From contig CAWAST010000010.1 in the NCBI GenBank assembly GCA_963784775.1, forward strand, positions 81,875 to 145,874: a stretch of DNA of 64,000 nucleotides, read 5' to 3'. The notes under the pieces are model-generated. The model searched no databases. It saw only the letters and a list, made by a program, of their open reading frames with translations, and was not told the origin of the DNA. Origin of the DNA: an uncultured beta proteobacterium (GTDB taxonomy: Bacteria > Pseudomonadota > Gammaproteobacteria > Burkholderiales > Burkholderiaceae_C). Position numbers and translations under genes: made by a program. Position 1 is the first letter of the stretch. Each line of letters begins with the position of its first letter. Positions 1,991 to 60,247 of this stretch are shown here, in pieces.

Positions 1991-2042
1991 TTTAGCCTTT
2001 AGCCCTTGTCCGTACTGCGATTGCAGCTATTAATTTTCTAGC
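1991..2042 (-). repeat. dispersed ~48-nt repeat, copy 7 (forms the coaBC 3' end and stop)
   Basis: rc = GCTAGAAAATTAATAGCTGCAATCGCAGTACGGACAAGGGCTAAAGGCTAAA, read in frame as [16 protein letters not shown]-stop; the dut ATG follows 3 nt later. Confidence 0.7.
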
Positions 2043-3212
2043 AAGAGAAAGTTTGGAGTCGCGCGTCAGTTCGGTCACCCCGGCCTCGTCGACCAGAATC
2101 AACGCGTTGTCGTCCTGGCCAAAGGTGGCCGGACCGATGTTGCCCACCAGTAAAGGCACGCCTTTGCGTAGCCGTTTGGCCTGCGCATTGGCCAGCAGAT
2201 CCTCGCTCTCGGCGGCAAAACCAACACAGTAAAGTTCGCCGCTCTGGCCTCTGGGCGACTTCGCCTGGGTCGCCAGAATGTCGGGGTTCTCGACAAACTC
2301 AAGCACCGGCACCGCGCCAGAACCGTCTTTCTTGATCTTCTGGTCGGCGGCCTGGGTCGGCCGCCAGTCGGCCACCGCAGCGCAGGCCACGAAAATCGAA
2401 GCGTCAGCAACACTGTCCTGCACCGCCTCCATCATGTGCAGCGCCGACTGCACATCAACCCGCCTGATCCCACGCGGGGTGGGTTGGGTGACAGGCCCGG
2501 CCACCAGCGTCACCGTGGCGCCGGCCTCCCGGGCTGCCTGGGCGATGGCAAAACCCATTTTCCCGCTGGACAGGTTGGTGATGCCGCGTACGGGATCGAT
2601 CGCCTCATAGGTCGGCCCGGCTGTGACCAGAACGCGCCGCCCGGCCAGGCTTTTGGGCTGGAAAAAAGCAATGACCTCAGCCAGCAGTTCCTCGGCTTCG
2701 AGCATCCGTCCGTCGCCGGTCTCCCCGCACGCCTGGTCTCCGCTGCCAACCTCAAAAACCGTCGCGCCGTCAGCCTTGAGTTGGGCCACATTGCGCTGGG
2801 TGGCCGGATGCGCCCACATTTCCCGGTTCATGGCTGGAGCGATCAGCAGTGGGACCGTCTCAATCGGACGCGCCAAACACATCAGACTGAGCAGATCGTC
2901 TGCCCGCCCGTGCAGCAGCTTGGCCATGAAGTCAGCGCTACAGGGCGCAATCAGGATGGCGTCGGCCTCACGGCTCAAATTGATATGCGGCATGTTGTTA
3001 GGCTCGCGCGCATCCCACTGGGAGTCGTAAACAGGACGCTGGCTCAGTGCCTGCAGGGTGACCGGCGTGATGAACTGCCCGGCCGCAGCCGTCATCACCA
3101 CCTGTACCGTAGCACCTTCCTTGATGAGAGAACGGCACAACTCGGCAGCCTTGTAGCAGGCAATGCCCCCCGTCAACCCCAAAACGATGTGTTTACCGGC
3201 AAGTTCATTCAT
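1992..3212 (-). CDS. coaBC: bifunctional phosphopantothenoylcysteine decarboxylase / phosphopantothenate-cysteine ligase
   Basis: ORF 1992..3272 trimmed to ATG 3212 ([27 protein letters not shown]). PAMNREMW and [10 protein letters not shown] motifs. The last ~16 codons are encoded by a dispersed repeat copy. Confidence 0.9.
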
Positions 3213-3306
3213 GGGGCGCAATTTACCATTTACCCGGGCGTTCGGTCCGGTGGGCACGCCTATAATCTCCATTTCCCACCTCCCGGAGCCCCCAGCTCCT
3301 CATGGC

Positions 3307-57146: not shown

Positions 57147-59159
57147 ATGCTAGCGGCTCTCAGGAAACTCCCGCGCGAAAGCCGTGACACCCTGTTCGTG
57201 CTGGTGGTCATCGCCTGGGTGGTGCTGCCGCAAGTGGGCCATTTACCCCTGTGGTGCAGTGCGCTCACCGGCGCGGTGTTGCTGTGGCGCGGATGGCTTG
57301 CCGCCACGGCGGGAAAGATGCCCTCCCGCTGGTGGGTGCTGTCCCTGCTGCTGCTGGCCGTGGCGGCCACGGTGTTCACCCACAAGACACTGCTGGGGCG
57401 CGACGCCGGCGTGACCCTGATCGTGGTGCTGCTGGCGCTCAAAACCCTGGAATTGCGGGCCCGGCGGGACGCTTTCGTGGTGTTCTTCCTCAGCTTCTTC
57501 ACGATGCTGACCAACTTCTTCTTTTCCCAGTCGTTGCTGACCGCAGCGGCCATGCTGGTGGCCTTGCTGGGTCTGCTCACTGCGCTGGTCAACGCCCACA
57601 TGCCGGTGGGGAAGCCACCCTTGTGGCAGGCGGCAAGAACGGCCGGTCTGATGGCGCTGCTGGGCGCGCCCGTCATGATCGTGCTGTTTGTGCTTTTTCC
57701 CCGCATGGCCCCGCTGTGGGGCGTGCCCGCCGATGCCATGAGCGGGCGCAGCGGCTTATCTAACACCATGGAGGTCGGCAACATCGCCAGTTTGGCCCTG
57801 GACGAGAGCATCGCCATGAGGGTGCGCTTTGACGGCGCGACGCCACCGCGCTCCGAGTTGTATTTTCGTGGCCCGGTGCTCTCCAGTTTTGATGGGCGCA
57901 GTTGGCAAATTCTGCGCTCACGCCTGCCCGCGCGCCTGCAACCCACGGGCAACCTGCAGGTGGCGGGCCCTGCCATTCGGTATCGGGTCACGCTCGAAGC
58001 CAGCCAGAAACCCTGGCTGATGACGCTGGACGCCACGGCAACGGCGCCCACAGTGCCGGGTTTCGAGACCCGAATGTCGCCTGATCTGCAATGGCTGCTG
58101 GATCGTCCCATCACCGATCTTCTTCGCTACGACGCAAGCAGTCATACCGATTTCCGGCACGGTCCCCTCGCCTATGTCGCGGGCCTGCAGGAGTACCTGG
58201 ATCTGCCCGCGGGCTCGAACCCGCGCACGCTGCAATGGGCCCGCCAGTTGCAACAGGACCCAGGCCACGGCGGCGCGGGGGGCCAGCAGTGGGTCGATGT
58301 CGTGCTGGCACAGCTTCGCACCGGTGGCTACAGCTACACCCTGGAGCCCGGTGTGTTCGGGCGCCACAGCGCCGACGAGTTCTGGTTTGATCGCAAGCAG
58401 GGATTTTGCGAACACATCGCCTCGAGCTTTGTCATCGTCATGCGCGCCCTGGGTGTGCCCGCGCGCATCATCACCGGCTACCAGGGCGGGGAAGCCAACG
58501 CCCTGGACGGTCATTGGGTGGTGCGTCAGAGCGATGCCCACGCCTGGACCGAAGTCTGGCTGGCTGAACGAGGCTGGGTGCGGGTGGACCCCACCGCCGC
58601 GGTGGCGCCCTCGCGCGTGGGCAGTTTGCAGCGTCTGCAGGCACCTCGCGGGGCGCTGGCCACGGCGCTTTTGGGTACGGTGAGTCCGCAGTTTGCGATC
58701 AATGTGCGCGCCCTGTGGGACGCCGTCAACAACCGCTGGAACCAGTCGATACTCAATTACACGCAGGGCAAGCAACTCGATTTGCTGCGCAATATGGGCT
58801 TTGACTCGCCCAACTGGGAGGACCTGATCTACCTGCTGCTGGTCATTGTGGTGCTGGCCAGCCTAACCGGCGCCCTGTGGAGTTGGTGGGAGCGGGTTCA
58901 CCGCGACCCCTGGTTGCGATTGCTCGCCCGCGCAACCCGGCGTCTGCAACGCGCTGGAATCGAGGTCCCACCGAATAGCCCGCCACGGCGGATCGCCGAG
59001 CAGTTGTCCAGGACAAATCAGCTCGCAGTTGCCACGGTACAACCAATGCGTGAGTGGCTGCTGCGCCTGGAGGTGCAGCGCTATGCCGCAGGCGGTGGAC
59101 ACCGCTTCAGTCTCGTTACACTGCAACGCGAGCTCAACCAACTGCCCTGGCCCAAGTGA
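57147..59159 (+). CDS. tgpA: transglutaminase TgpA-family membrane protein
   Basis: ATG 57147 after GGAGGA (ORF 56979..59159). N-terminal polytopic domain, transglutaminase core QGFCEHIASSF...DAHAW.EVW. Confidence 0.8.
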   Translation: MLAALRKLPRESRDTLFVLVVIAWVVLPQVGHLPLWCSALTGAVLLWRGWLAATAGKMPSRWWVLSLLLLAVAATVFTHKTLLGRDAGVTLIVVLLALKTLELRARRDAFVVFFLSFFTMLTNFFFSQSLLTAAAMLVALLGLLTALVNAHMPVGKPPLWQAARTAGLMALLGAPVMIVLFVLFPRMAPLWGVPADAMSGRSGLSNTMEVGNIASLALDESIAMRVRFDGATPPRSELYFRGPVLSSFDGRSWQILRSRLPARLQPTGNLQVAGPAIRYRVTLEASQKPWLMTLDATATAPTVPGFETRMSPDLQWLLDRPITDLLRYDASSHTDFRHGPLAYVAGLQEYLDLPAGSNPRTLQWARQLQQDPGHGGAGGQQWVDVVLAQLRTGGYSYTLEPGVFGRHSADEFWFDRKQGFCEHIASSFVIVMRALGVPARIITGYQGGEANALDGHWVVRQSDAHAWTEVWLAERGWVRVDPTAAVAPSRVGSLQRLQAPRGALATALLGTVSPQFAINVRALWDAVNNRWNQSILNYTQGKQLDLLRNMGFDSPNWEDLIYLLLVIVVLASLTGALWSWWERVHRDPWLRLLARATRRLQRAGIEVPPNSPPRRIAEQLSRTNQLAVATVQPMREWLLRLEVQRYAAGGGHRFSLVTLQRELNQLPWPK

Positions 59160-60247
59160 TTTTCAAGCTTTTCAAATTCGCTATCATTTTAATAGCTACA
59201 TGTGCTTTTTCCACTGGGGCTTATGCCAAAAAAAGCTCGAAGAAAAGGCCTTCTGGCACGCGTCTGACGCAACGCTGGGTCCAGGCTGGGCCGGCCTATG
59301 CCGAACGCGAAGACGCGATGCGACTGGCCGACGACATCGCTCTGCGACGCGATCTTCCCCAGGACTGGGTCCGCCAAGTCATCGGGCAGGCCAGTTTTTC
59401 CCCACAGTCCGTGCGGTTCATGCAACCGGCGCCAAAGGGCACACCCAAGAACTGGCGGGTGTACCGCAGCCGCTTTATTGACCGTTTTCGCCTTCAGGCC
59501 GGGCTGCAATTCTGGCGGGACAACCGCGAAGTTCTGGCGCGCGCCGAGCAGGAAACCGGCGTTCCGGCCCAGATCATTGTGGGCATCATTGGTGTGGAGA
59601 CCATTTACGGCCAGCAAATGGGCAACTTTTCAGTGCTCGATGCGCTGACCACGCTGGCCCTGGATTTTCCGGCCGATCATCCGCGTGCGGCCGATCGCAG
59701 TGCGTATTTCAGGTCCGAACTCGAACAGTACCTGAGTCTGGTGCACCGCGCGGATCTGGAGCCCGGGTCGTTGCGCGGCAGTTACGCCGGGGCCATGGGC
59801 ATGGCGCAGTTCATGCCCTCAAGCTGGGTCAAGTACGCGGTGGATTTTGACGGCGACGGCAAAATCGATCTGTTCAACAGCGCCGCCGACGTGATCGGCT
59901 CGGTGGCCAACTACTTTGTTGCCTTCGGCTGGCAAAGCGGGTTGCCCACGCACTACCCGGTCCACTTTGATGTGCAGTTGCTCGATCTTCCGACCCTGCT
60001 CGCGCCGGACATCGTGCCGACCTTCAACGTGGACAGCTTCTTGGCCAATGGCGCCATTGTGGTGGGTTCGGCCTTGCAACACCCCGGCCTGCTGGCACTG
60101 GTCGAGTTGCAAAACGGTAATGCACCGCCCAGCTACGTGGCGGGAACCCAAAACTTCTTTGTGATCACACGCTACAACTGGAGCAGCTATTACGCACTGG
60201 CAGTGATTGAACTCGGGGAAGAAGTGAGCCGGGCCATGGCACCGTAG
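59156..60247 (+). CDS. mltB: lytic murein transglycosylase B
   Basis: In-frame GTG 59156 overlapping the tgpA stop (GTGA) gives signal peptide (V)IFKLFKFAIILIATCAFSTGAYA. ...GIIGVETIYG, GAMGMAQFMPSSW. Codons 9-24 are a dispersed repeat copy. Confidence 0.78.
   Translation: MIFKLFKFAIILIATCAFSTGAYAKKSSKKRPSGTRLTQRWVQAGPAYAEREDAMRLADDIALRRDLPQDWVRQVIGQASFSPQSVRFMQPAPKGTPKNWRVYRSRFIDRFRLQAGLQFWRDNREVLARAEQETGVPAQIIVGIIGVETIYGQQMGNFSVLDALTTLALDFPADHPRAADRSAYFRSELEQYLSLVHRADLEPGSLRGSYAGAMGMAQFMPSSWVKYAVDFDGDGKIDLFNSAADVIGSVANYFVAFGWQSGLPTHYPVHFDVQLLDLPTLLAPDIVPTFNVDSFLANGAIVVGSALQHPGLLALVELQNGNAPPSYVAGTQNFFVITRYNWSSYYALAVIELGEEVSRAMAP
59180..59227 (+). repeat. dispersed ~48-nt repeat, copy 6 (forms the mltB signal-peptide coding region)
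   Basis: GCTATCATTTTAATAGCTACATGTGCTTTTTCCACTGGGGCTTATGCC; perfect GCTAT-N7-ATAGC hairpin; 20 nt after the tgpA stop. Confidence 0.7.

Follow-up and report, generated by a model that had tools for sequence, protein, structure and literature searches.

The stretch of DNA considered here, 64,000 nucleotides of contig CAWAST010000010.1 from an uncultured beta proteobacterium (hereafter the window), carries eight or nine copies of a short (~50-75 nt) dispersed repeat element with an AT-rich palindromic head. The copies belong to a family that spans the Comamonadaceae, sits mainly near the ends of genes and forms a stable hairpin in many relatives, a hairpin that is absent from the window copies. 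With about as much confidence as doubt, we read this as an unnamed Comamonadaceae-wide family resembling repetitive extragenic palindromic (REP) sequences and REPINs (REP doublets forming hairpins), whose hairpin-bearing forms would act as terminators or 3' hairpins and whose window dialect would have decayed or been co-opted.

A first-pass annotation of the window had reported at least seven copies, six of them alignable without gaps and all conspicuously AT-rich. Each of the seven quoted sequences stands exactly where it was placed, on the strand given; the gapless alignment of six holds, with one gap needed for the seventh, and the GC content of the copies is 39-52%, that of the window 60.6%. 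A position weight matrix (PWM) was made from the six gapless copies by leaving one out at a time and ranking ~128,000 non-training positions. Every left-out copy takes rank 1, with 21-47 bits against a background maximum of ~3-9, and the scan also brought out two candidates that the annotation had missed, at 20077-20122(+) and 56345-56390(+). An independent PWM was trained on 42 intergenic copies from other genomes and on no copy from the window, and an nhmmer hidden Markov model was built from 60 non-window copies. The latter gives E-values of 6e-12 to 2e-4 for eight copies; six of the original seven are thus solid, while the seventh (49033-49080) is marginal at 0.22. In 0.79 Mb (791 kb) of negative-control DNA from non-Comamonadaceae loci (Pseudomonas, Massilia, Burkholderia and alphaproteobacterial) the independent PWM reaches a maximum of 16.2 bits and then falls below 6. 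Matches scoring at least 15 bits number 9 in the real window but only 1 over fifty dinucleotide-preserving shuffles of it. The repeat family is genuine, independently of how its first copies were selected.

The nine copies, labelled A to I, are listed below with the nhmmer E-value and the score under the independent PWM; gene context comes from Pfam searches and a self-trained codon-usage gene caller.

Copy A, 1992..2044, minus strand: last 16 codons and TAA stop of coaBC (E 1.3e-9; 46 bits).
Copy B, 15443..15509, plus strand: intergenic (E 6e-7; 39 bits).
Copy C, 20074..20140 (PWM 20077-20122), plus strand: inside an EamA transporter gene; new and weak (E 1.7e-4; 18-21 bits, 18 with the independent PWM).
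Copy D, 30266..30331, minus strand: intergenic; the top match (E 6e-12; 48 bits).
Copy E, 33899..33961, minus strand: inside hutD, in frame (E 6e-10; 42 bits).
Copy F, 41280..41330 (nhmmer match 41264-41331), minus strand: 5' untranslated region (UTR) of an FKBP-type isomerase gene (E 2e-6; 34 bits).
Copy G, 49018..49081, minus strand: spacer between acyl-CoA dehydrogenase (ACAD) and nitronate monooxygenase (NMO) genes; marginal (E 0.22).
Copy H, 56346..56410 (PWM 56345-56390), plus strand: inside a DUF58-like gene, in frame; new (E 2e-9; 26 bits).
Copy I, 59177..59241, plus strand: inside mltB, which starts at GTG 59156 (E 1.4e-9; 41 bits).

Five of the nine copies therefore lie in coding sequence (coaBC, EamA, hutD, DUF58-like and mltB), in each case as native protein sequence of unaltered length. 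The gene context described in the first-pass annotation was right in substance: heads lie 30, 67, 13 and 20 nt after the stops of the cupin, hutF-like, ACAD and tgpA genes, two copies lie within coaBC and hutD, and one stands antisense before the FKBP gene. The copy placed after tgpA, however, is actually inside mltB. Copy A ends in an A-run that stops 3 nt short of the dut ATG at 1988, and the CoaBC protein of the window has an exact public match (P0121). The genes on either side of copy B, cupin (stop 15415) and queG (stop 15503), are convergent; its tail carries an A-run, and its T-rich head adjoins a hairpin belonging to the cupin gene. Copy C occupies the linker joining two EamA domains (Pfam), in a frame that differs from that of the other coding copies; its ATAGCT has become CAGAGCT, and with the lost T the in-frame TAG is gone. 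Copy D, with a perfect GCTAT/ATAGC head and the tail GGGGCTAGAGGTCAATTTTTCCTATAAAA, follows the hutF-like amidohydrolase gene and stands 25 nt ahead of the ATG of an MFS transporter gene (30259). Copy E encodes a native beta-strand region of HutD (15 residues, then VQF). Copy F is antisense to its neighbours and lies between a CATAAT box (41262-41267) and a ribosome-binding site, the FKBP ATG being at 41346.

Copy G has a good head, GCTATCTATTTGATAG, and a diverged body, within a spacer of 137 nt that runs from the ACAD stop (49094) to the NMO ATG (48956). A second hairpin, GGACTT...AAGTCC, gives the extended region a folding energy of -23.3 kcal/mol (z -3.3). This hairpin, GGACTTGTAGCC...AAGTCC at 49013-49042 (-), lies directly downstream of the copy and accounts for the only strong fold found at the window copies. 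The gene holding copy H lies between moxR and tgpA, and the copy encodes TMNIEAPDAVFTGASARF. Copy I encodes the lipoprotein signal peptide and lipobox of MltB (FAIILIATC/AFSTGAYA); the 363-aa product has an exact public match (P0241). The tgpA stop and mltB start overlap as GTGA (59156-59159), and three relatives have the same 4-base overlap in their annotation (10001-10004), which makes translational coupling of the two genes probable.

The family had been taken to be specific to this lineage, which proved too narrow. It spans the Comamonadaceae, with Rhodoferax-like, Polaromonas and Acidovorax-type canonical copies and traces in Variovorax. The window genome itself, judged by its proteins, is a Rhodoferax-like member of the Comamonadaceae: its DnaK is at most 92% identical to proteins of Rhodoferax and other Comamonadaceae, and its HutI at most 74% identical to those of Polaromonas and Ramlibacter metagenome-assembled genomes (MAGs). 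Among the relatives' loci and metagenome contigs (L002 to L174), five copies occur in 22 kb around dnaK in L081, two in the Rhodoferax MAG L082, three in the Polaromonas MAG L005 and two in L002. Comamonadaceae metagenome contigs around grpE (80 contigs, 756 kb) give 78 matches above 14 bits, and density in related genomes and metagenome contigs is ~1 copy per 7-10 kb. The exact head GCTAT-N7-ATAGC occurs at 25 sites (50 strand-hits) in the 756 kb, at none in the 791 kb from other genomes and at 2 sites (4 strand-hits) in the window. A pattern scan of the first 50 kb of the Polaromonas plasmid pPNAP01 found no GCTA-N(6-10)-ATAGC head.

Placement relative to genes was counted over 75 distinct sites, comprising 47 intergenic sites, 5 across a gene end, 15 in coding sequence in the sense direction and 8 in coding sequence in antisense. 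Of the intergenic sites, eight have convergent neighbours and no more than 3-4 divergent ones; between tandem genes, ~12 are co-oriented and ~11 antisense, to which nine orthologues of the FKBP site are added. Co-oriented copies as a rule begin 1-30 nt past a stop codon, mostly with a T-run. This is the pattern of REP-type elements and terminators, not of promoters, and in support of the favoured reading the convergent and divergent counts agree with those published for Acidovorax ebreus (PMC5217627).

The family has a characteristic layout. The AT-rich head palindrome, (TT)GCTAT-N7-ATAGCT, is followed by a central segment whose arms begin with TAGCT and finish with GGCTA, then by GGGCTAGAG-GCC and a T-run, replaced in some copies by an A-run. 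A gapless alignment of 68 distinct copies yields the consensus nnTTGCTATnAAATTnATAGCTGCnTGCGCAnnnTnnACGnGGGCTAnAGnCnnATTTnnC, in which four columns are invariant. On the 5' side of the central hairpin stands ATAGC (44 of 68 copies) or GTAGC (15 of 68), but this block can also pair with GCTAY at the opposite side. Contigs of 63-68% GC have a long central hairpin, perfect or nearly so, for instance ATAGCTGCTAGCGCTTAT-GT-ATAAGCGCTAGCAGCTAT in L147 (-36.5 kcal/mol, z -8.1) and CTAGCGCTTG-TAAAT-CAAGCGCTAG in L138 (z -4.4 to -7.4). Rhodoferax-like L139, L100 and L164 have GTAGCTnCCCGCGC...GCGGGGGCTAC and then AGCCCTTTTT-CTTATAAAT, a tail also given as CCCTTTTT-CTTATAAAT.

Stable GC-rich stem-loops are found in many relatives (L147, L138, L139, L119 and L169). 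In the hairpin-bearing relatives the stem sequence changes from copy to copy while pairing is kept, and a scan for intrinsic terminators (GC-rich stem-loop plus T-run) calls the canonical copy in L138 at 6620-6644. The central fold has z < -2 in 40% of intergenic copies, against none of the 15 sense-coding copies. The dialect of the window is hairpin-poor; it reads ...GC-N7-ACnGGGGCTAGAG and has ACnGGGGCT in place of ATAAGCGCT. At the level of genera, dialects differ as ATAAGCGCT and ACGGGGGCT.

Orthologous non-coding sites with and without the element provide a further line of evidence. In the FKBP 5' UTR, a conserved CATAAT box is followed by GTTTTC, an insert of ~52 nt and A(A/C)CAAGG. The site is occupied in the window and in ~18 relatives, always in one orientation, with scores from 51 down to ~1 bit, and is empty in L082, L111, L096 and L114, where the ribosome-binding site comes almost directly after GTTTTC. 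At the ACAD-NMO junction, the 137-nt spacer with copy G compares with 2 nt (TGAacATG) in L084, whose flanking proteins are 82-89% identical to those of the window. Both differences look like insertion. The same FKBP 5' UTR (41253-41345; L092-L171) is also a hot spot for other insertions, with unrelated structured inserts in L125, L118, L131, L116, L120, L126 and L119. Antisense family copies occur upstream of dnaG as well, in L164 (2762-2807, ~100 nt upstream) and L082 (1667-1712, head 27 nt before the start), and may mark a second conserved site of the 5'-UTR type.

If the family is REP/REPIN-like, the copies of hairpin-bearing relatives would most likely act as intrinsic terminators or as protective 3'-end RNA hairpins downstream of genes. 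The window copies would probably be decayed or co-opted relatives that no longer terminate transcription. Within genes, copies would survive in stop-free frames only, copy C lying in another frame and having lost its TAG. The consensus is free of stops only in forward frame 1 and one reverse frame, the stops elsewhere being the TAG of ATAGCT and the TAG of CTAGAG; the consistent frame of the coding copies follows from there being only these two. The earlier guess at a terminator or stabiliser fits the canonical relatives, whose terminator-like hairpins lie downstream of genes, but not the window copies, which have no significant fold or terminator signature. A REP- or MITE-like (miniature inverted-repeat transposable element) nature had also been proposed, and the family does have this dispersed character, although insertion does not predict coding copies free of insertions or deletions (indels).

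Several results weigh against the REP/REPIN-like reading. The central folds of the nine window copies are no better than those of shuffled sequences (z -2.2 to +0.7), and the terminator scan calls none of them. Copy B, for example, has a central-fold z of -2.15 and is not called, and copy D folds only as a head hairpin of 5-7 bp (z 0.1-0.4), which is not terminator-like. Covariation, which the first-pass annotation had proposed to look for, was not significant for any of three helices in a common fixed register. For the central helices, 51-53% paired in fixed registers and not above controls, these tests are uninformative because loop lengths and registers vary between copies. The head is paired in 84% of the family, yet its column pairs (T/A 28, T/G 15, C/A 13, C/G 5) show independent variation; what is conserved is the sequence, and not demonstrably a helix. 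The FKBP site, where the empty state is well defined, shows no target-site duplication, and no gene for a REP-associated tyrosine transposase (RAYT, a Y1 transposase) was seen in the annotated loci. Orientation relative to transcription is inconsistent across the family, and its near-even split in tandem contexts weakens a strictly RNA-level role. Finally, at least five coding copies (coaBC, hutD, mltB, DUF58-like and the Mem_trans gene of L081) have no indel relative to orthologues without the motif, while the match extends over ~60 nt and uses the rare AT-ending codons ATA, GCT and TTT. Simple insertion does not predict such native, indel-free sequence. The favoured reading leaves these copies, in defiance of codon bias, unexplained.

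The coding copies were compared with their orthologues gene by gene. The CoaBC tail encoded by copy A aligns to the C-terminal helix of the solved Mycobacterium smegmatis and Escherichia coli enzymes and is kept as LARKLIAxIAxRxRARG in 13 relatives. Orthologous coaBC DNA in L087 and L089 carries the motif at 21-24 bits under a model without copy A. In L090 (66% GC), coaBC encodes ARQLVAEIARRL by GC-rich codons, and no PWM match above 10 bits is found anywhere in that locus. HutD aligns without gaps to solved structures and 17 orthologues. In hutD the motif stands at the same position and with the same length in four genomes (31-38 bits in L002, L005 and L006, 42 in the window), against -25 to -72 bits in 14. 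The DUF58-like protein aligns gaplessly to three orthologues, and the orthologous DNA in L174 scores 38 bits. The MltB signal peptide is kept as AIxFIAACALSTGAxA in 12 relatives, and its DNA head, GCTAYnnnnnTGATAGCA, is kept even in Variovorax terrae (70% GC) and Rhodoferax koreense (67% GC), including the very rare codons ATA, GCT and TTG. The coding copies are mosaics, with native residues where the protein family conserves them and motif bases elsewhere, up to the Phe TTT that gives the T-run of the tail.

Coding copies in relatives lie at L002 8281-8326, L005 17877-17922, L081 2222-2267 and L164 1056-1101, in genes for a DnaE2-like polymerase, IleRS, Tex and TrmB. The Tex copy (L081) alone sits in an extra segment, of 17 residues without counterpart in Pseudomonas aeruginosa Tex. 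The same gene classes, replication and repair and RNA or tRNA enzymes, host intragenic REPs (Di Nocera et al., 2013; PMC3733652). An origin of the element from coding sequence, by way of the lipobox-like frame-1 peptide AIKLIAACA, was considered and is unsupported, as several unrelated native proteins carry that peptide.

These mosaics speak for a different explanation, in which the element would be a long recognition sequence in DNA, built up in place and not primarily a mobile insertion. Mutation together with a directional force, either selection for a binding protein or a drive of uptake or recombination like that of uptake signal sequences (USS) and DNA uptake sequences (DUS), would write the motif wherever sequence is tolerant: in gene-distal spacers, terminators and coding segments with a peptide like A-I-x-L-I-A-x-C-A-x-x-T-G-A. 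Such a process would account for indel-free coding copies that include rare synonymous codons, for the two same-length classes of hutD orthologues (31-42 versus -25 to -72 bits) and for an mltB head kept from Rhodoferax to Variovorax at 70% GC. Nearly indifferent orientation in tandem contexts, genus-level dialects, the continuum of scores at the FKBP site (51 to -6 bits) and a head conserved in sequence without pair covariation also agree with it. However, the clean presence or absence of 52 nt at the FKBP site and the spacers of 137 and 2 nt look like insertion, and a pure recognition site would not be expected to keep a GC hairpin of varying sequence, as 40% of the intergenic copies do. Its density (1 per 7-10 kb) and core (4 invariant columns) are far below those of known uptake sequences, and at 46-70 nt it is far longer than any known uptake signal or nucleoid-protein site. 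We know of no factor that would recognise it. On balance, we consider this explanation unlikely, if still a serious contender.

A related proposal is that the motif has been imprinted on existing DNA without change of length, and not only by mobile insertion, in the MltB signal peptide, CoaBC helix, HutD strand, DUF58-like protein and Mem_trans N-terminus; we hold this to be rather improbable. If it were true, imprinting would imply an uptake-signal-like or biased-conversion drive with genus dialects in the Comamonadaceae, or alternatively a factor reading GCTAT-N7-ATAGC...GGGCT in double-stranded DNA, at sites that number hundreds in each genome. The family is broader than first thought and had been partly noticed before; its one unexplained property is this imprinting in place on coding sequence. 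Insertion and accumulation in place may both operate.

A cis-acting structured RNA (regulatory leader, processing site or small RNA) could in principle act on the gene downstream. Several copies do lie 8-120 nt upstream of co-oriented starts (dut, the MFS gene, NMO, hutI and mltB), and the copy in the FKBP 5' UTR is conserved in many relatives. A search of Rfam, suggested in the first-pass annotation, gives no match at the gathering score in the window, nor in 129 kb of relatives with canonical copies. The window folds are no better than shuffles, common-register covariation is lacking, and both orientations and convergent spacers occur; this role is very unlikely.

We give hardly any credence to the idea of sigma-70-type promoters read from the reverse strand of the copies (TTGTCC-N16/17-TATTAA). 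Several copies, taken as reverse complements, look like -35/-10 pairs; a scan finds TGGAAA-16-TAAAAT on the reverse strand of copy I, and copy F, which would be the clearest case, points at the FKBP gene. Yet from seven of the nine window copies transcription would run antisense into a gene, either its body or its 3' end, many members lie between convergent genes, and promoter-like matches in the window are not above shuffles. The CATAAT box of the FKBP site is outside the element and present also in genomes without it. A forward sigma-70 promoter was rejected as well, since the spacing from TGGACA to TATAAA is 22 nt, which is too long, and the matches are not above shuffles.

Chance resemblance of AT-rich patches picked by eye, which pairwise identities of only 46-67% and the silence of the window's generic repeat finder might suggest (it missed the family because the copies are too divergent), is refuted by an independent model that finds the copies at E down to 6e-12 and essentially nothing in shuffles or unrelated genomes, and by the membership of only 8 of the 46 AT-rich patches in the window.

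Other features of the window lie outside the family. The strongest ordinary terminator-like site, at 27016-27043 (+), has a 12-bp stem, AAAAAGGCCGGT...ACCGGCCTTTTT, flanked on both sides by A- and T-runs, and is unrelated to the element. A GC-rich inverted repeat lies nearby at 27181-27214 and 27231-27264, and its 34-nt arms show 85% complementarity and enclose 16 nt. Between the divergent hutC and hutU genes, TGTACAAGTTGTATAGACAACTATAC at 35110-35135 has a near-identical counterpart in L009 (2131-2176) and looks like an operator for HutC (GntR-type). The hutU gene (35183-36890) seems split: the open reading frame (ORF) 35183-36742 matches Urocanase_C over its first 23 positions only (residues 363-385), and a second ORF, 36354-36890, has a strong coding score in another frame. 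The second ORF within the region and the short Urocanase_C match therefore suggest a frameshift or sequencing error near 36340. The palindrome GCTACAAGATTCATAGC (40672-40698), upstream of an HxlR-like regulator gene (40776-41120), is conserved in place in L081, L082, L084, L092 and L093. It was considered as a family member for its resemblance to the head, but is a separate orthologous operator-like site, probably the regulator's own operator.

Comamonadaceae abound in freshwater, soil and wastewater, and the element would supply the described REP-type family that this group appears to lack. It would also give annotators a model for sites that number hundreds per genome, both within and between genes, including likely terminators in hairpin-bearing dialects. 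If the coding copies reflect a directional process or a factor that reads DNA, they would add to uptake sequences another kind of system by which coding sequence is shaped at the level of nucleotides.

BREs (betaproteobacterial repeat elements) are known from Bordetella and from Comamonadaceae including Rhodoferax and Polaromonas, with some intragenic copies (Hot et al., 2011; PMC3110155), but they are ~90 bp long, 69% GC and arranged in tandem (as variable-number tandem repeats), whereas the copies here are single, 50-75 nt long and 39-52% GC; BRE is another element altogether. A likeness to a tRNA anticodon arm (5-bp stem, 7-nt loop) was rejected for want of a conserved U33 pattern. Resemblances to the binding motifs of IHF (WATCAANNNNTTR) and of OxyR/LysR-type regulators (CTAT-N7-ATAG) fit neither the copy number nor the convergent placement. 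The terminal inverted repeats and target-site duplication of a MITE are not seen, the palindromic core being the only inverted repeat.

Rickettsia palindromic elements (RPEs) are insertions that add a peptide module. Like RPEs, the element forms an in-frame palindromic repeat in housekeeping genes (in relatives, those for IleRS, the DnaE2-like polymerase, Tex and TrmB); unlike RPEs, the five copies checked here replace nothing and add nothing. The USS of Pasteurellaceae and DUS of Neisseriaceae have a near-invariant short core and occur at ~1 per kb. They and the present family share occurrence in both coding and intergenic DNA without indels, restricted frames, a position near terminators and dialects. 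The family differs in having no near-invariant core of 9-12 nt, in being ~10-fold rarer and in its length of 46-70 nt.

Ordinary intrinsic terminators share no extended primary-sequence family. The canonical relatives resemble them, with a GC-rich stem of 10-18 bp and a T-run placed 1-30 nt past stop codons. The window copies, in contrast, fail the test of hairpin plus T-run, and half of the copies in tandem contexts are in the non-terminating orientation.

REP and REPIN sequences (GTAG-tagged REPs; Bertels and Rainey, 2011; PMC3116915; PMC3733652) offer the closest general parallel. Both they and the present family are short dispersed palindromes found mostly downstream of genes between tandem or convergent ORFs, with some intragenic copies; in both, occupancy differs between genomes. 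The RTAG(C) motif beside the hairpin may correspond to the conserved GTAG or CGTC tag at one end of REP palindromes. The dispersal is likewise REP-like, at ~1 copy per 7-10 kb and mainly in tandem and convergent spacers near 3' ends. However, it is the stem that is conserved in REPs, whereas here the AT-rich flanks (head palindrome and T-run) are conserved and the stem varies between copies. The window copies have no stable stem of the kind expected from a GC-rich palindrome of 20-40 nt. Published intragenic REPs are insertions that add residues, some donating a TAG stop (PMC3733652), while the coding copies described here add none.

Full-text searches of the literature found no paper showing the element by sequence string and no described REP-type family under REP, REPIN or RAYT in Comamonadaceae. 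The earlier statement that no described family could be named is correct in that there is neither a name nor an Rfam model, but parts of the element had been listed anonymously in a 2017 survey of spaced pentamer pairs, as 'potential novel motifs' (BMC Genomics 2017;18:27; PMC5217627). That survey reports GCTTAT(N)5AAGCG in Acidovorax ebreus TPSY, with 114 copies, 94% of them intergenic (44 convergent, 59 tandem, 4 divergent), and ATAGCT(N)22CAAAAG in Polaromonas naphthalenivorans CJ2, with 125 copies (18 within genes). Pairs of the form GCTAT-N6-[TGA]ATAG are given for P. naphthalenivorans in its supplement, and Rhodoferax ferrireducens, at 140, exceeds every other genome in its number of motif pairs (PMC5217627). 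The first two pairs have no match in the window, and their exact forms are absent from the first 84 loci examined; 5 and 1 matches occur in the Comamonadaceae contigs, at family members. The survey gives pentamer pairs only, with no element, boundaries, structure, name or function. The head GCTAT-N7-ATAGC equals the GCTAT-N6-[TGA]ATAG pair (five strand-hits in the window), and GCTTAT(N)5AAGCG equals the top of the central hairpin in members L138 1780, L166 18547 and L148 12508. Placement is the same too, near gene ends, with many convergent and few divergent sites and 4-14% within genes in two genomes. The element would thereby explain these anonymous motif pairs, and probably also the top count of R. 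ferrireducens; on the evidence of sequence, the 2017 motif pairs are pieces of the repeat element described here.

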